Assembly (NCBI GenBank): GCA_965197905.1
Contig: CBDAOB010000002.1
Coordinates: 320,001 to 384,000 of the forward strand
Length of the DNA stretch: 64,000 bases
Direction of reading: 5' to 3'
Source: Candidatus Latescibacterota bacterium
GTDB lineage: Bacteria; Latescibacterota; UBA2968; UBA8231
Each line of letters begins with the position of its first letter. The first letter of the stretch is position 1. Positions 40,926 to 48,508 of this stretch are shown here, piece after piece. The notes under the pieces were generated by a model. That model did not search any database, was not told the DNA's origin, and worked only from the letters and a program-made list of their open reading frames with translations. Made by a program: the position numbers and the translations under genes.

Positions 40926-42872
40926 CTATTTCAGCAGGGTCACAGAGCGGGTGGCCGAAAAATCGCCGGCCTCCATCCGGTAGAAATAGGTCCCGCTAGA
41001 CACGGCCTGACCGCTATGATCGCGGCCCTCCCACACCGTCTTGTAGGCCCCCGCACTCAAGGTCTCGTCCACCAGCTTCGCCACCCGCTGGCCGGCCGCG
41101 TTGTACACCTCGATCTTCACCAGCCCAGCGGCACCAGGCGGAACGGTGAACTCGATCGTGGTCGCGGGGTTGAACGGGTTGGGATAGGCCTCGTTCAACG
41201 AGTAGCTGTCGGGCGTGCCTGCGCTTTCGACCTCTTCGACCACGGTCACGCCAGCGCCCAACCTGCGGGTCTGTATATCGAAGGGAATGTGCAGCAACAT
41301 GCCCGGAGGAAAGAAGTCACCAGAATCGCCGAGTCCAGTATGGCCATCCAGTCCATATCTGCCATTCCAATACATGCCGTCCCACGGTCCCGGCTGGCCC
41401 GCATTTCTGCCCTCGTAGGGATCGCCGCCGACTCTGGATCTGTTGTTCTGAACGAAGATGTTCCACTTCGACCCAGACGGCACGAACGGACCGACCGTAT
41501 GGCTTATAAAAATACGGTACATCCCGAAGCCATCCCGTGAATAGGCGTTCCATTGGTGGCCCAATGGGTTGTGATTTTCGGCGCCCAAGACAAACTTTCC
41601 AGTCAGGTCGACCGAAAACCTGGTTAGTGCGGAGAACGAGCCCTGCGGATTCCCAAACCTGGCGGCCAGTTCATCGGGTATCACGTCGCCGTAAAAGTCG
41701 CCCGGGCCATTGGTCCAGATGGGGTCGCCGTTGTGGTCCATCTTGAGAAAGTGTTGGGACCCATGGCCGTGCACGTAGATTCCGCTGTCGTCAACGATAA
41801 TATTGTCCGGTCCACGGAGAGTATGTGTCTCATTGCCATCCGCATCAACATTGATCCAATCGGAGAACTCGGTGACGTCATACTCTTGGAGGAAGGTGCC
41901 GGTGGCCCTGTCCCAGACCTGGACCGTGCCCGTCGGTGGCTCGGATTTGGTGTTGTTCGCGTTATAGAGCTTATCCTGATAAATTTCAAGCACCTTAATT
42001 CTTTCATTCTCCCTACCCTGGGCAGTAGAGAACATGACACCATCGTCGGCCCAATCCGTGACCAGGTCAAACGTCCTGCCGGCGCGATTGATTTTTAGCT
42101 TCAAAATGGCCGGACCCGGTTCGGGCCTCGACACGACCATCCAGAAGATTTCTTCATCGTCGGGATCGGGACGTATACCGCCATCGCTCTGTTTAGTGCC
42201 TTCCCAGGGGATCTTGCTATGAAAGTCCCAGCGTTCCCAGCCATTGGGATTGGCAATGAGATCCGTACCAAACTCTACGCGCGCCACATTGCCAACCTCC
42301 AGACCGAACAACGGTTCGTCGACCTCCGTGGTCCAGTTCTCGGGAGGATCCTTGCGCATATCAATGATAGGGTCGATGAAGCCCGTGCGAGGGGCTACTC
42401 CCATCAGCACCGGGTTATCCAAAACATTGATCCCGATCACGTCGAATTCGTAGTTGCCGGGGCCGACCGCATTACCTTGCCAATCCCGGCCGTCCCAGGT
42501 CACCACGTTGTTGCCCGCTTCCAGATCGGCACCCGGAGTGTTGTTCAGGTACAGGTCCTGCGCCTGAAACCTGTGTATGGAGCCGTTGAGACCGGTGACT
42601 CCCGTCACGTTACTGCCGATCTCGTACACCGAGATCCACACCGTGGCGCGCTGGCTCAGGCTGATCGGAATGTCCACTGAGCCACTCCCGTTCCATGACA
42701 CGTCCGAAGCGGTAATACGCAGCGGGTTCGGAGTCCCTGATTGCTCGGGAAGCGCTGGATTTGTGCCTTCGGGAAGCGAGGGCTGTGCGGGAAAGGTTTG
42801 CGAAAATGTGGAGCTGGCGGCCATAAGGACTACGGCGAGCGCGGCTGCCAACACAAATTGCAGTTTCTGCAT
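40926..42872 (-). CDS. secreted protein with FlgD-like Ig domains and a T9SS type A-like C-terminal domain
   Basis: Signal peptide; N-terminal VTWDGRDWQGNAVGPGNY; C-terminal YSLNEAYPNPFNPATTIEF..VYNAAGQRV..WEGRD..SSGTYFY; SD AGGAGG. Confidence 0.85.
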   Translation of the reverse strand: MQKLQFVLAAALAVVLMAASSTFSQTFPAQPSLPEGTNPALPEQSGTPNPLRITASDVSWNGSGSVDIPISLSQRATVWISVYEIGSNVTGVTGLNGSIHRFQAQDLYLNNTPGADLEAGNNVVTWDGRDWQGNAVGPGNYEFDVIGINVLDNPVLMGVAPRTGFIDPIIDMRKDPPENWTTEVDEPLFGLEVGNVARVEFGTDLIANPNGWERWDFHSKIPWEGTKQSDGGIRPDPDDEEIFWMVVSRPEPGPAILKLKINRAGRTFDLVTDWADDGVMFSTAQGRENERIKVLEIYQDKLYNANNTKSEPPTGTVQVWDRATGTFLQEYDVTEFSDWINVDADGNETHTLRGPDNIIVDDSGIYVHGHGSQHFLKMDHNGDPIWTNGPGDFYGDVIPDELAARFGNPQGSFSALTRFSVDLTGKFVLGAENHNPLGHQWNAYSRDGFGMYRIFISHTVGPFVPSGSKWNIFVQNNRSRVGGDPYEGRNAGQPGPWDGMYWNGRYGLDGHTGLGDSGDFFPPGMLLHIPFDIQTRRLGAGVTVVEEVESAGTPDSYSLNEAYPNPFNPATTIEFTVPPGAAGLVKIEVYNAAGQRVAKLVDETLSAGAYKTVWEGRDHSGQAVSSGTYFYRMEAGDFSATRSVTLLK

Positions 42873-42948: not shown

Positions 42949-42977
42949 ATTATAACGAGAAATTTTAGGGGTGTCAA
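42949..42977 (-). promoter_or_regulatory. consensus sigma-70 promoter for 40926..42872
   Basis: The minus strand reads TTGACA-17 nt-TATAAT exactly. Confidence 0.85.
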
Positions 42978-43005
42978 TATTTTTACGCAATTAGCATTTT
43001 AAGAC

Positions 43006-43034
43006 TTGACATTCGCCCTCTTATTGGTTATCTT
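43006..43034 (+). promoter_or_regulatory. transposase promoter overlapping the left inverted repeat
   Basis: TTGACA-17 nt-TATCTT, 35 nt before ATG 43070. Confidence 0.7.
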
Positions 43035-43069
43035 AAATATAAGAAAAACAAGCAATACGGGAGCGAAGA

Positions 43070-43939
43070 ATGAACTTGATTACCGTGACAGAGAGATTCC
43101 CGACGCAAGAATCCTGCATTGCTCATCTGGAGCGGATACGCTTCGGCGATGAGCCCTTTTGCCCCTTGTGCGGCACGGTCGGGGAATGCGCCCGCAAGAA
43201 GCAGGGGAATGTAATCGGGCGTTGGAACTGTCACGCTTGCAAATCCAGCTTCAATGTCTTATCCCAGACCATGTTTCAAGGCACGCATCTTCCCTTGCAA
43301 AAGTGGTTCTGCGCCATCGCCCTGATCGTGAACGCCAAGAAAAGCCTGTCCAGTTGCCAGCTCGGGCGTGACTTGAACCTGAATCAGCGGTCCGCCTGGT
43401 ACATGCAACAGCGCATCCGGGCTGAAATGGCTACCAAGCAGGGAAGAATCAGGTTAACTGGACTCATCGAAGCCGACGAGACCTACGTCGGCGGACGCCC
43501 CAGGAAGCGCAACAGGCGCGACGACGACAAACCCAACCTCAGAGGACGGGGAACGCGCAAGACCGCGGTTATCGGCGCTGTGGAGCGCTCAGGGAAGGTT
43601 GTGGCTCAGGTCGCCGACGATCTCTCCGCTAAGGGCGTGCTCGAGTTTATCAAACGTGCCATCAATCCTGACGCCTCGACGTTGGTCACGGACGAATATG
43701 GGGCCTACAACGTAGTGCGGCGGATCATGGATCACTGCGTGATTCAGCATTCCAAGCGTTATGTTGATGGCACGATTCACACGAACACGATCGAAGGCGT
43801 GTGGTCTTTGCTCAAGCGGGCGTGGTATGGATCGCATCATCACTACACGCCGCTTTACGTGGCCGAGGCTTGTTTCAAGTACAATCACCGCGACGACGAC
43901 AACGCCTTCGGTTCTTTCCTACAAGGGTGCTTCAAGTAA
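43070..43939 (+). CDS. IS1595 family transposase (ISXO2-like DDE domain, N-terminal Zn ribbon)
   Basis: CPLC..WNCHAC, IEADETYVGG, LVTDEYGAY and IHTNTIEGVWSLLKR. Confidence 0.95.
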   Translation: MNLITVTERFPTQESCIAHLERIRFGDEPFCPLCGTVGECARKKQGNVIGRWNCHACKSSFNVLSQTMFQGTHLPLQKWFCAIALIVNAKKSLSSCQLGRDLNLNQRSAWYMQQRIRAEMATKQGRIRLTGLIEADETYVGGRPRKRNRRDDDKPNLRGRGTRKTAVIGAVERSGKVVAQVADDLSAKGVLEFIKRAINPDASTLVTDEYGAYNVVRRIMDHCVIQHSKRYVDGTIHTNTIEGVWSLLKRAWYGSHHHYTPLYVAEACFKYNHRDDDNAFGSFLQGCFK

Positions 43940-44025
43940 TTGCGGATTCGCCGTTGGCCTGGCCTCGAAGTGAGGAAGCTTACGGGAATTATCGCAAACC
44001 ACTTTAGGGGGAAAGGCCAAAGTCG

Positions 44026-44458
44026 TTAATAAGAGAAGGTAAAATGACCGTCACATGACACCGTTAAAACGCCTCGTTTTAAAACGTCTTGGCCTAAAAG
44101 AACTCCATACTTAGCATTTGAACCAGGATTGAAATGTATAGCTTGAACCAACATAAGTTGTAATTTTGCTCCATTCGGATCTTGTTCGTCTTCAAACGCG
44201 AATCCAACCAGAACGTTATAAGCGTTCATGGTTAACGTTATAAGCGTTCATGGTTACAGCCCGCTCAGAGTTTTGAATATCTACTTGCCCGATTGGTTCT
44301 AAGTTTAGAGCTTCAACAACTGACGGTGATATGCATGTGTATGTGGCTCCAGTGTCAACTAATGCGGTGCAAGGATGGATATTATCTTCATCGACAGCTA
44401 TAGCAACGTCACATGTAATGCCAACTGCCCAGTCAAACCGAGATACTACCACGGACAT
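44026..44458 (-). pseudogene. retropepsin-like aspartyl protease broken by a 22-bp tandem duplication
   Basis: ALVDTGATYTCIS in ORF 44216..44458 and VLLGQDVL in ORF 44026..44229; removing one repeat copy gives a single 136-aa frame. Confidence 0.88.
44212..44255. repeat. perfect 22-bp tandem duplication
   Basis: AACGTTATAAGCGTTCATGGTT occurs twice in succession. Confidence 0.95.
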
Positions 44459-44690
44459 GAGAAAAATACCCCAAATCTATAGGTCGTGAAGATACCTTTT
44501 GAATGGAAAATAATTTTCCAGGCAGGAACGTTTTTCCTGCTTCAATAGCATCCTGGCCGGTTTCAAACAAAGCCACAATTCCCCCGTTATGCATTAGAGC
44601 CGTTTTCCCATAATCGGTCTTGGACAGATTTGCAAGTTGCTCTTTGAAAGCATGGTAATTTCTCTCCACTTCTTCCTGCTGGGTTGGCAT
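44433..44690 (-). CDS. small DUF5678-like protein, partner of the aspartyl protease
   Basis: 85 aa: EVERNYHAFKEQLANL..YGKTALMHNGGIVALFETGQDAIEAG..FSIQKV. Overlaps the protease start; GAGG upstream. The family name is from recall. Confidence 0.65.
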   Translation of the reverse strand: MPTQQEEVERNYHAFKEQLANLSKTDYGKTALMHNGGIVALFETGQDAIEAGKTFLPGKLFSIQKVSSRPIDLGYFSHVRGSISV

Positions 44691-44754
44691 GTGAGTACCC
44701 TCGTGGCTTTTAGTGGGTGCTACACTGAAAACCTAGTCGAATGGTGTATACGCT

Positions 44755-44783
44755 ATAATACGCGCATTTGAGCGTATTATCAA
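44755..44783 (-). promoter_or_regulatory. putative promoter with overlapping palindrome for the cargo operon
   Basis: Minus strand TTGATA-17 nt-TATTAT; inverted repeat ATAATACGC-8 nt-GCGTATTAT at 44755-44780. Confidence 0.55.
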
Positions 44784-44795
44784 GAATTATTCAGT

Positions 44796-45020
44796 TCACC
44801 CAGTTCCCAACCCCGGGCTCTTGCCAATTTCAACATAAAAATCTCCATCCAAATGCAAGAAGCGTTCTTCGAATTCGCTATAAGGTATGATTGTTTCTGG
44901 TTCACAAACCAACCTTAAGATTTTCGCATATCCCAACTTCTCTTCTATTATTCCTTTGCTTGTGTCTGTTCCTCCCGTTTGATGCTCCAATAGAATAACT
45001 GTTCCAATTGGCGAAGCCAT
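44796..45020 (-). CDS. hypothetical 74-aa passenger protein
   Basis: ATG preceded by strong SD AAGGAGG; no recognisable motif. Confidence 0.5.
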   Translation of the reverse strand: MASPIGTVILLEHQTGGTDTSKGIIEEKLGYAKILRLVCEPETIIPYSEFEERFLHLDGDFYVEIGKSPGLGTG

Positions 45021-45060
45021 GATACCTCCTTCTAAAAGTTGGGTAGTATCCTAATAACCG

Positions 45061-45114
45061 AATGTCAAGATTGTCGCCAGTCCAAATTGTTCTATTTTTG
45101 AAGTTGGGTTCCAT
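45061..45114 (-). pseudogene. N-terminal stub of an N4/N6 DNA methyltransferase-like gene
   Basis: MEPNFKNRTIWTGDNLDI resembles the N-terminus of such methyltransferases; no DPPY/DPPF motif follows. Confidence 0.55.
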
Positions 45115-45346
45115 TGCGCGTTGACAAGGGGAATGTATTGAAGTTACTTCGCGAGGGCAAGTCTTAAAATGCTAATTGCGTATTTTTTCGTGATTTTCAC
45201 AGCGATATATGGTGGTCGGAAACGTTTGAGAGACACGATCTGCGCTGTCGTATGCGGACGAAGGGAAATAACTTCCGAGACGGAAAGGAACTATTTTCCT
45301 GCGCCTGGGTATTCTCTGGGAAATTTAGTCTGGAAAGGGCGGTTTC

Positions 45347-48300
45347 TTAGGAAGGCGAACGGAGTTTGTGGGGTGCAAATGTGGATCGACGTCGCAAGGC
45401 GGATGCCACGATCTTGCGACTGAACTCGCGCACATCGTCCAGAAGGGTGTAACACAACGGTACGATAAGGAGCGTCAGCACCATCGACGCCAGAAGCCCG
45501 CCCATCATCGTACGTCCGAGCGGGGCGTAGTTGGCGCCGATCACCTTGCTGTTGCCGATAGCCATCGGAACGAGGCCGAAAATGGTGGTGAAGGTAGTCA
45601 TCAAGATGGGCCGAAAGCGGTGTCGCCCTGCCTCGATCAGAGCGTCGAACCGCTTCAAGCCCTCGGAGCGCAGGCGATTGGTGAGGTCCACCAGCACGAT
45701 GGCGTTGTTTACGACTACCCCCACGAGTATCACCGTGCCGATTCGGGACATGTCGTCGAACGTCGTTCCCGTTGCGTAGAGCGTCCAGTAGACCCCCAGG
45801 AAAGAGAACGGAATAGCGATAATGACCGAAAGTGGCAGTACAAACGATTCGAACAGCAGTCCCATCAGCAAGAACACGAAGGTCACCGCCAGAACAATGG
45901 CGAACTGTTGCGATGCGTCGCTCTCTTGCATGCGTACATAGCGTGCCCCCTTGTCCCAGCGATATCCGCGCGGCATCTCGAACCCTTCCATCGCCAGATC
46001 GATCTGCTCGAAGAGGTTCTCGGATTCTTCTTTCGTTGCCGTGGCAGTTACCGCCACCATCGTCTGCCGGTTGTGGCGGCGGATGCGACCGATGCTCTGG
46101 TTTACGTAGAACGAGCCCAGCGATTTCAGCTGCACCTGCTTGCCGTCCACGGTTGGAAAGCTCAGGTTGCGCAAGTGTTCCATGTTGCTGATGTCTTCTT
46201 CCTGCAGGCTCATGCGCATAACCAGCTCGCCGCGATCTGTCCGGAAGCGACTCAACTCAACGCCGCGAAGTTGGTTCGACGGCCATCGGATCCCGAGATT
46301 GCTTGAGATAGTTCTGGCTTCGATGCCGTACTGATCGAGCTTGGCCCGGTCGAGTCGAACCTGCAGCTCAGAGTTCCCTCCCACGGCCATTTCCGTATAC
46401 ACCCGCTCCAAACCCTCAATACCCAAGAGGCGACGTTCTACTTCCTCGGCCAACGCGGTCAATAGCCGCGTCTCGTGGCCGTAAAGATTCAGCGTCACGG
46501 AGGCGTCCTGACCGGTGCGCTCGCGGTTCATGGTCAAAACGATGCCGGGCTTCGACGGGATGCGGCTCTTGATATCCTTGACGACATCCTCATATTCCAT
46601 TCCGGTCTTTTCACGAAGACCAAGCTTGTCGACAATCTCGTAGAAAGCCACGCTGTACCACTCGAGGTTCTCCCCTTCTTTCAACACCACGCCGGCTCCA
46701 CCGCGCCCGGTCGTATACCAGATCCTGACGACGTCGGCGTTGTACTCGTCTCTGTGGTTCATCAGGGTATCCTCGACGCTGTCCATATAGTCGCCCAGCG
46801 CTTCCACGGAAAGTGCCGGTGGCACGTCGAACCTCATGTGAATCCAGCTGCGCCGATTCTGCTGGTCGGTTTTCTTCATGCCTTCGATGGGGATGTAAAT
46901 GGACCCCATCAAGAGCAGCACGACGATGAGTCCGTCCAGACGATGGTTGAGCGCAAATCGCAGGCAACGCAGGTACCGATCGCGTAGTTTGGCGATCAGT
47001 CTCAGCTCTTCCTTTTCTTTCTCGGTAGAAAGACGCTGCGCCGCCAAGGGAATGAAGATCAAAGCGATAAATAAGGAAGCCAGCAGGCCGACGATCACTG
47101 GCAAGCCGATGCGAAACATCCAGAAGGCGAACGATTCTTCATCGCTCATGAGAATCAATGGCAGGAACACGACCACAGTAGTCAAGGTCGCTATGGTTAC
47201 AGCGAGTCCCACTTCGCCGGCGCCCTCGATGGATGCCCGGCGCGCCCCTGTTCCAGACTGCTGCTTGCGATAGATGTTTTCCACGATAACGATGCCATTA
47301 TCGACCACCAGTCCGAGACTCAACATCAATCCCATCATCGTCGCGATATTGAGCGACCAGCCAGCAAAGTAGAGAACAGTTATCGTTACCAGTATCGACA
47401 GTGGAATCGCCAGCACGATCAGCATTGTCATACGAACCGCCCGGAGGAAGAAGAACAGGATCAACGCCGCGAAGAGCCCTCCCCACAACCCCGACTTCTT
47501 CAGATTTTCGATCGACTTGACGATATACTCTCCCTGATCCCACACAATCTCGATGTTGACTTTGTCGAAAACGGGATCGGACTTGAGCTCCTCCAGCAAC
47601 CCGCGTATGGCGGTCGTTACGGCAACTACGTTTCCCACGGCCGTGCGCTGAACGCCCATCCACATAGCTTCGTTGCCGTTGGTACGGTTGTACCAGTCTT
47701 TCTTCGCCTGCTGCATGTGAACATTGGCGACTTCGGACAGCCGCAGATCGAACTCGGAGTCGAGAACCAGGTCGCGAATCTCTTCCAGAGAATCGAGGCT
47801 GGCCACGGAGCGGACATAGAGCCGCTTGCCGCCATCGCGGACGGTTCCGCTGGGGAAGATGAAATTCTGATTCCGAAGCTTGTCTACGACGTCGATCAGG
47901 TTCGCCTTGTGGCTTTCAACCTTGCGCTGGTCCAGCTGAATCAGAACCTCTTCTCGAGGCACCCAGGTTTTGATGTTGGCGACGCCGTCGATACGTTCTA
48001 GCATCGGTTTGAGCTGACTCTCCACCAGGGCCATAGGCTGGGTGACCCCCGGTTGGAAATTGATGTTCATCCACATGATCTCGTCGTCGTCGTCGCTGTC
48101 CCATTTTCCCACTGTAATCGGTCCGTACGGCAGTTCGGGTGCGAGCCGGTCCATGCGCTCGGTGAGCTCGCCCCACGCCCGCGACATGTCAGCGTCGGCG
48201 CGAAAATAGATTTTGGCGATAGCCCGTTCCCGCATTCCGGCCGTTTCGAACTCCTTGACTTGCCCGAGGGTAGCCAGCGCCGCTTCTAGAGGCAGGACAA

Positions 48301-48508
48301 TCGACCGTTCCGTCTCTTCGGGGCTGGCGTTGGGATACGGTATCCACACCCAAAGGCGTTTGTCATCGCGCCCCCTAGGTACGAGGTTGAGCGGAATTAG
48401 GGTGTAAGCAATGTAGCCCACCACTAGTAGCGCAGTGAGGATCATCACCACAGTCACCGGCCGGTCGACCGACAGGCGTGGCAACAGATAATCGCGTTTT
48501 TTGGTCAC
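45347..48508 (-). CDS. RND efflux transporter permease (AcrB/AcrD/AcrF family)
   Basis: 1053 aa; SVDRPVT, LGLVVDNGIVIVENI, TTVVVFLP, GVVVNNAIVLVD and RFRPILMTT. Confidence 0.93.
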   Translation of the reverse strand: MTKKRDYLLPRLSVDRPVTVVMILTALLVVGYIAYTLIPLNLVPRGRDDKRLWVWIPYPNASPEETERSIVLPLEAALATLGQVKEFETAGMRERAIAKIYFRADADMSRAWGELTERMDRLAPELPYGPITVGKWDSDDDDEIMWMNINFQPGVTQPMALVESQLKPMLERIDGVANIKTWVPREEVLIQLDQRKVESHKANLIDVVDKLRNQNFIFPSGTVRDGGKRLYVRSVASLDSLEEIRDLVLDSEFDLRLSEVANVHMQQAKKDWYNRTNGNEAMWMGVQRTAVGNVVAVTTAIRGLLEELKSDPVFDKVNIEIVWDQGEYIVKSIENLKKSGLWGGLFAALILFFFLRAVRMTMLIVLAIPLSILVTITVLYFAGWSLNIATMMGLMLSLGLVVDNGIVIVENIYRKQQSGTGARRASIEGAGEVGLAVTIATLTTVVVFLPLILMSDEESFAFWMFRIGLPVIVGLLASLFIALIFIPLAAQRLSTEKEKEELRLIAKLRDRYLRCLRFALNHRLDGLIVVLLLMGSIYIPIEGMKKTDQQNRRSWIHMRFDVPPALSVEALGDYMDSVEDTLMNHRDEYNADVVRIWYTTGRGGAGVVLKEGENLEWYSVAFYEIVDKLGLREKTGMEYEDVVKDIKSRIPSKPGIVLTMNRERTGQDASVTLNLYGHETRLLTALAEEVERRLLGIEGLERVYTEMAVGGNSELQVRLDRAKLDQYGIEARTISSNLGIRWPSNQLRGVELSRFRTDRGELVMRMSLQEEDISNMEHLRNLSFPTVDGKQVQLKSLGSFYVNQSIGRIRRHNRQTMVAVTATATKEESENLFEQIDLAMEGFEMPRGYRWDKGARYVRMQESDASQQFAIVLAVTFVFLLMGLLFESFVLPLSVIIAIPFSFLGVYWTLYATGTTFDDMSRIGTVILVGVVVNNAIVLVDLTNRLRSEGLKRFDALIEAGRHRFRPILMTTFTTIFGLVPMAIGNSKVIGANYAPLGRTMMGGLLASMVLTLLIVPLCYTLLDDVREFSRKIVASALRRRSTFAPHKLRSPS

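Follow-up and report, generated by a model that had tools for sequence, protein, structure and literature searches.

The locus studied here raises one question: what is the role of a small gene that overlaps the gene of a retropepsin-like aspartic protease and is carried with it on a mobile element? The window, i.e., the whole stretch of 64,000 nucleotides that was analysed (Candidatus Latescibacterota bacterium, assembly GCA_965197905.1, contig CBDAOB010000002.1, positions 320,001 to 384,000 of the forward strand), contains at 42986-45180 an IS1595 element in which an 85-aa gene precedes such a protease gene. An earlier note on this DNA had ascribed to the pair a toxin-antitoxin or anti-phage architecture. 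The comparison of relatives leads to a reading to which about an even chance is given: the unit may be a harmful cytoplasmic protease held by an inhibitory partner, in a toxin-antitoxin-like manner, and disarmed in this genome. The value lies in the pair family; the element in the window does no more than carry a disarmed copy.

The partner gene (44433..44690, minus strand) is intact and overlaps the start of the protease gene by 26 nt. The ATG of the protease sits within the partner's tail, in its His-Val codons, and among the listed pairs it mostly lies 13-31 bases before the partner stop; this position within the last codons suggests coupled translation. The protease occurs as two pieces on the minus strand, i.e., an N-terminal piece with the DTGA motif (44216..44458; PF13650 with E 3e-7 and PF13975 with E 4e-7, both above cut-off) and a C-terminal piece with the LLGQD motif and a terminal HFTFSY strand (44026..44229; positions 80-147 of the family profile). 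The retropepsin-like motifs are present across these two pieces, and the frame is shifted by a 22-bp tandem duplication (44212..44255). All of the intact relatives match PF13650 and PF13975 (43/43), and L, D, G, A and G-x-D are invariant in these 43 sequences. The cut-offs of TIGR03698 and TIGR02281 are not reached (21.5 vs. 57.35 bits for the first member; weak matches in 20 and 19 of the 43). In the family, DTG lies at residue 36-53 and there is no clear signal peptide. By sequence, the nearest solved relatives are Ddi1 (E 5e-6) and retroviral proteases; a word-based protein search with the protease piece gave nothing among longer proteins. The protease is probably a cytoplasmic homodimer, by analogy with retropepsins.

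The partner belongs to a family of 350 clusters at 50% identity (HMMER), while a word-based protein search with the 85-aa protein matched only itself. Profile-profile comparison relates it to DUF5678 members (85% probability, E 6e-6, 43 columns). The partner remains below the gathering cut-off of PF18929 (DUF5678), with 12.3 vs. 23.2 bits, and 10 of 100 relatives match DUF5678 at E 0.01 or better; an Atlas match of 0.89 to a cluster with 10% DUF5678 is a lead only. Its model (pLDDT 76) consists of a helix, two strands, a helix, a strand and an unstructured tail. No solved relative was found by sequence, and no solved fold matches the model (Foldseek none at E 0.001, best Z 4.2), an absence which does not show a new fold. 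The profile and structure searches proposed by the earlier note were thus productive in part, with DUF5678 at profile level for the partner and PF13650/PF13975 for the protease, and without a fold match for the partner. In comparison with canonical DUF5678, the partner subfamily has one more helix at the N-terminus, and its tail is conserved. Part of this tail conservation is due to the embedded protease ATG: in 82 of the 101 relatives with the tail motif, the residues are compatible with it. The tail was considered as a binding motif and set aside as weak evidence, since its residues fit the embedded ATG. Canonical DUF5678 genes are in several cases likewise followed by D[TS]G proteases, so that the likeness extends to DUF5678 (PF18929) followed by Asp_protease_2 or gag-asp_proteas genes. 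For DUF5678 no function was found in the literature searched, and no paper on the DUF5678-related/retropepsin pair, subscription journals being outside the scope of both searches. Among the relatives P0007, P0009, P0010, P0139 and P0050 there are proteins with two partner domains in tandem, and one that is fused behind a helix-turn-helix-like region. No partner-protease fusion is found in L011-L298; in the one suspected case, L090, the partner has lost its stop and an intact protease follows.

The two genes were searched from both sides. With the partner as anchor, 41 of the 168 genomes of the host's own phylum match, and the best 30 loci were taken, including the window's own copy; in the genome collection the best 80 of 129 loci were taken (14 named phyla), with a search motif that favours partner tails holding ATG. 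Five loci are common to both sets. With the protease as anchor, the best 30 loci of the same 168 genomes and the best 80 of 353 metagenome loci were taken. Behind the partner, a protease or what remains of it is found at 29/30 own-phylum loci and at no fewer than 78 of the 79 testable genome loci, in 14 named phyla, and a partner precedes the protease at 75/76 testable metagenome loci and 60/66 viral loci. The co-occurrence that the earlier note had proposed to measure is thus near-obligate for the two genes; it does not extend to the element, an IS1595-type transposase being near only 4/80 genome loci. No match to the pair was found in plasmids or cultured phages, and PHROGs holds no family for it beyond SEC-C tails.

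The pair is lost from one side only. In the own-phylum partner loci, 16 proteases are intact and 14 are broken or stubs (one without trace; the window's own is among the 14). In the genome collection, 54 are intact, 25 are broken, truncated or mutated in the active site, and 1 is at a contig end. The active-site changes are DTG to DTE and DTG to DAG, and loss involves, besides point changes, many different deletions. When the protease is the anchor, the partner is intact in 28/30 loci of the 168 genomes; of the two others, one is at a contig end and one is a protease fragment with the partner 38 kb away. After 7 rows that were non-full-length or untestable were dropped, an intact partner precedes the full-length protease in 23/23 cases. 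In the metagenomes (best 80 of 353) 75 partners are intact, 4 are cut by a contig end, and 1 truncated protease has no partner, i.e., 75/75 for full-length proteases. Fisher tests of this asymmetry give p 8e-5 (14/30 vs. 23/23) and 8e-9 (25/79 vs. 75/75), values that are overstated since kin are not independent; a length-scaled estimate for ~11 independent break events gives p ~0.005. Such one-sided loss is the pattern expected if the protease were harmful without its partner.

Inter-protein coupling was calculated by a mean-field method on 144 dereplicated pairs, with a low effective number of 89. The top coupling joins an Asp of the partner helix to a Lys of the protease (z 10.5); 8 shuffles reach at most 8.4, and 10 near-neighbour swaps stay <2. 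The Lys presumably lies on the strand before the flap, a position taken by analogy. In the main clade, a basic protease residue goes with an acidic partner residue in 60/64 cases and with a basic one in 0. On the tree, 16 changes are counted for each of the two coupled states and 23 for both jointly. Couplings of rank 2 and 3 are an artefact of the gene overlap and serve as positive control. The Asp/Lys coupling is suggestive of a contact between the two proteins, which is not established.

From these observations, the mechanism may be described as follows. The 85-aa gene and the protease gene would be translated in a coupled way. The partner would bind and inhibit a protease that, when unbound, would be harmful to the cell, its first helix possibly touching, through the Asp-Lys pair, the strand leading into the protease flap. 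The protease would be freed once the partner is removed, whether through turnover when the unit has been lost or through infection by a phage. Here the unit would be disarmed, the frameshifting duplication being present in both protease copies and the partner being intact. A wider proposal is put forward tentatively: DUF5678-type proteins could be dedicated inhibitors of a toxic retropepsin-like protease and form an undescribed toxin-antitoxin or abortive-infection class, spread by IS1595 and prophages across many bacterial phyla, in which the protease would be set free when the inhibitor is removed by a phage protein or by host shut-off. If the reading holds, an aspartic protease joins the known toxin or defence effectors, and a natural protein inhibitor of an HIV-protease-like fold is at hand. 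One-sided loss and coupled residues make a common unannotated gene pair testable as to which gene harms, which protects and where they touch.

Several results weigh against the inhibited-protease reading. The larger loss comparison draws on two collections and on motif-biased searches. The coupling rests on one residue pair, and in the tree-aware test independent pairs are at 4.4 to 0 of 9, which is not significant (sign test p 0.06); partner column 14 looks much like the coupled column, and the window's own proteins carry Glu and Gln at the coupled positions, not Asp and Lys. No conserved palindrome or operator is found upstream of the partner in relatives. No DNA-binding fold is recognisable in the partner, unlike most type II antitoxins, which have one. 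The neighbours are mostly housekeeping genes (140/241 called ORFs, 37 loci) without a recurring third partner; ~8/37 loci have a methyltransferase, toxin-antitoxin-type or mobile neighbour, a count without background control. The viral pairs are mostly of more distant subfamilies. The one-sided loss and the single coupled residue pair fit the toxin-antitoxin-like architecture of the earlier note. As to the "own promoter", a promoter-like site with an overlapping 12-bp inverted repeat lies upstream of the partner (44755..44783, minus strand), a 10/12 consensus match only, and promoter-like matches in the region are not above chance (5 found vs. 3.2 +/- 1.9 in shuffles).

Linkage, gene overlap and a coupled residue pair would fit any complex. 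The partner could thus be an activator, an assembly factor or a substrate adaptor of a regulatory protease with limited cleavage, like RimB or Rlo, the characterised bacterial retropepsin-like proteases, which have regulatory roles (PMC12239564). This is judged unlikely, though worth keeping in mind: if loss of the partner were a harmless switch-off, intact proteases with broken partners would be predicted, and there are 0 in 75 and 23 cases; moreover, no conserved third gene or pathway context is found. The pair could also be passive cargo, its one-sided loss arising from a benefit of the small gene itself or from position or search bias, and not from harm by the protease. Several points are in line with such an explanation: the neighbours of the pair vary widely, the passengers of the IS1595 elements in this genome are unrelated, intact anchors are placed first by the searches, and each of the two larger sets was drawn from a collection of its own. 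Nevertheless, the same 168 genomes searched from both sides show the same asymmetry, the breaks include point changes in the catalytic motif as well as many different deletions, and partners without any protease trace are rare (1/30 and at most 1/79). Passive carriage is accordingly given a small share of the probability.

The state of the protease in this genome must be weighed apart. The full-length frame is absent, both copies being frameshifted. In a second, near-identical copy of the element (G000:C3:784944-787144), a different duplication, of 28 bp, covers the same bases as the 22-bp one of the window, and a further change replaces Thr by Pro two residues after DTG. The two copies differ only by these +6 bases at the protease duplication and by one substitution. 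This small difference leaves room for the idea that the duplications arose in the assembly or belong to minority alleles, and that the living element has an intact protease, to which only a slight chance is given. Runs X1 and X2, which represent one sample and possibly the source of the assembly, bear on it in two ways. Their contig graph also fits an unduplicated allele, and the extra base change of the second copy is absent from all of their contigs. On the other hand, these contigs break exactly at 44234/44236, a loose end matches the 28-bp allele, and there is extra depth over the repeat; by this reading of the graph, at least two alleles are present in the reads. The allele besides the 28-bp form is compatible with the 22-bp or the unduplicated one, both of which fit. 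Furthermore, the duplication site folds as a hairpin, and broken proteases are frequent in relatives, which also speaks against artefacts. In the RNA run X4, one contig spans 43864-44134 and shows no differences; transcription, however, cannot be read from contigs.

The carrier is an ordinary IS1595 transporter element, recently transposed. It is bounded by perfect terminal inverted repeats of 23 bp (left, 42986..43008, plus strand; right, 45158..45180, minus strand). A perfect repeat of 25 nt is detected (42984-43008/45158-45182), as TA stands at both ends of the target duplication. The left target duplication, TATTTTTA (42978..42985, 8 bp), and the right one, TATTTTTT (45181..45188), are identical at 7/8 positions; at the second copy the identity is 8/8. 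The transposase (43070..43939, plus strand, 289 aa) is intact, contains a zinc ribbon and matches PF12762 (E 8e-34, 117 bits) and PF12760 (E 6e-7, 29.7 bits), both above cut-off; D136, D208 and E242, found in its motifs, are taken to be the catalytic residues. A promoter-like site facing the transposase (43006-43034) overlaps the inner end of the left repeat. The cargo is AT-rich (GC 0.42-0.43) in comparison with the transposase (0.56) and the genome (0.58). Mobility is indicated by the two near-identical copies at different sites of the genome. Three sister elements, each with different unannotated passenger ORFs, are located at G000:C3:205973-207892, C3:1035024-1037078 and C5:1661331-1664753; their transposases are 88-92% identical, their ends are similar, and they also show 8-bp target duplications. 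The description of the element in the earlier note (intact ends with a 7/8 duplication, intact transposase, AT-rich cargo) is thus confirmed, as is its expectation of passenger genes, the 85-aa gene and the protease forming a conserved overlapping unit; the search for further copies of the repeat that it suggested yielded the second copy and the three sisters with different cargo.

Both copies lie inside the same rare 8-mer (TATTTTTA occurs 46 times and TATTTTTT 74 times in 6.7 Mb), the target duplication of the second copy being at G000:C3:784936-784943 and 787145-787152. The target duplications of the sister elements are unrelated to this 8-mer. A target preference of the two copies is possible. 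A sigma-70 promoter match of 12/12 (42949-42977, minus strand) for the gene of a 648-aa FlgD-Ig protein (40926-42872) is left whole by the insertion, which abuts its -35 box; the second copy is likewise upstream of a long gene. On the right side, a gene of an AcrB/AcrD/AcrF-family transporter (45347-48508, minus strand), itself ordinary, ends 160 bp away from the element.

The cargo consists of three unrelated parts: a methyltransferase stub, a 74-aa ORF and the gene pair. The stub (45058..45114, minus strand, start at 45114) corresponds to the first 18-19 codons of N6/N4 DNA methyltransferases, with 17/17 residues identical to the N-terminus of the best match, in agreement with the earlier identification. 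It is matched in 12/167 other genomes, where three of the full ORFs match PF01555. In genome G037 (including L337), eleven matches to the methyltransferase N-terminus are found, which suggests many methyltransferase-carrying elements. The orphan 74-aa ORF (44796..45020), also on the minus strand as first noted, has only 99%-identical relatives; it has no match in the 167 other genomes (1/168 being the window's own) and no Atlas match above 0.78. In the deeper X1/X2 contigs its variants comprise three changes at third and one at second codon positions (determined by hand) as well as an insertion of 3 bases that keeps the frame; they give weak support for a real gene. In run X2 a weak contig joint (43914 to 44815, its short side being 30 letters long) points to a sister element that lacks the pair. 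As a third component of the pair the 74-aa ORF was rejected, since it is absent from every related locus; it and the stub are separate passengers.

The pair is widespread and, as the transposase counts indicate, mostly off IS1595. The unit is thus not specific to IS1595. Such pairs are also found with two other IS1595 elements. The one at L046, which is distinct from the present element and has ends and an 8-bp duplication of its own, encloses the pair and a C5 methyltransferase-HNH gene; at L354 a more distant pair lies beside an IS1595 transposase and a truncated methyltransferase. On viral contigs, with 34 of 66 loci covered (91/132 ORFs), a gene for an integrase, a recombinase or a repressor-type protein is the neighbour at 9 loci and one for an endolysin at 2, a count without control. 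Such neighbourhoods are the usual slots of prophage accessory genes. In L264, L265, L267, L269 and L277, viral proteases of the family are preceded by an unrelated overlapping small basic ORF and not by a DUF5678-like gene; a partner swap is possible. The proteases of a more distant subfamily (L033, L248, L256, L260, L261, L271, L276) end in a CxCGSxxxYKxC tail, which we take to be SEC-C-like.

The published IS1595 transporter elements (e.g., tISCpe8 and MTnSag1) resemble the present one by their DDE transposase, inverted repeats of ~25 bp, 8-bp target duplication and passenger genes (PMC5704250). The passengers differ: instead of resistance genes, the present element carries the gene pair with the protease, the orphan ORF and the stub of a methyltransferase. 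As for the protease, few bacterial members of clan AA are characterised, and Rlo proteases are described as secreted and RimB as acting with RimK (PMC12239564). RimB, RloA of Pseudomonas and the protease domain of Ddi1 share the clan AA DTG motif with the present family, which for its part has no clear signal peptide and a dedicated overlapping partner. An archaeal CRISPR survey lists a small retropepsin beside type III systems, not shown to be the present protease family (PMC3973734).

Type II toxin-antitoxin systems are similar in having two small overlapping genes, the presumed antitoxin first, a mobile and patchy distribution and a second gene that is lost first; they differ in that no DNA-binding domain or operator was found for the pair. 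Aspartic proteases are not known among type II toxins. In its arrangement and in its pattern of loss the pair resembles this class, of which it would be a putative member.

The earlier note knew of no characterised system of this kind. The unit is not wholly unlisted, as the partner is a DUF5678 relative and as a PADLOC candidate, PDC-M08 (A and B), which is the closest system on record, has the same layout: in L301, L307 and L309 a small gene (model of 86 positions) is seen to overlap a retropepsin-like one (127-128 positions). PDC-M08 is one of 145 guilt-by-embedding phage defence candidates that their authors call untested (10.1101/2024.01.29.577857); M08 is not named in the main text of that source, whose supplements may bear on it. 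The present protease family gives with PDC-M08B only partial matches (E 2e-3 to 4e-6, vs. E 1e-31 or better for true members), and the partner gives no match with PDC-M08A (0.8% probability in the profile comparison, from a three-row alignment). Judged by both models, neither of which it matches properly, the pair is outside PDC-M08. In the host's phylum, L301-L309 hold PDC-M08A and B as an overlapping small gene/retropepsin pair. At L310-L314 the small partner that precedes a retropepsin is of yet another, third type. PDC-M52B, also considered, matches weakly two DUF5678-linked proteases and has no member in the 168 genomes. If the protease of the present pair is indeed held by its partner, the comparison gives a hint at how PDC-M08 may work.

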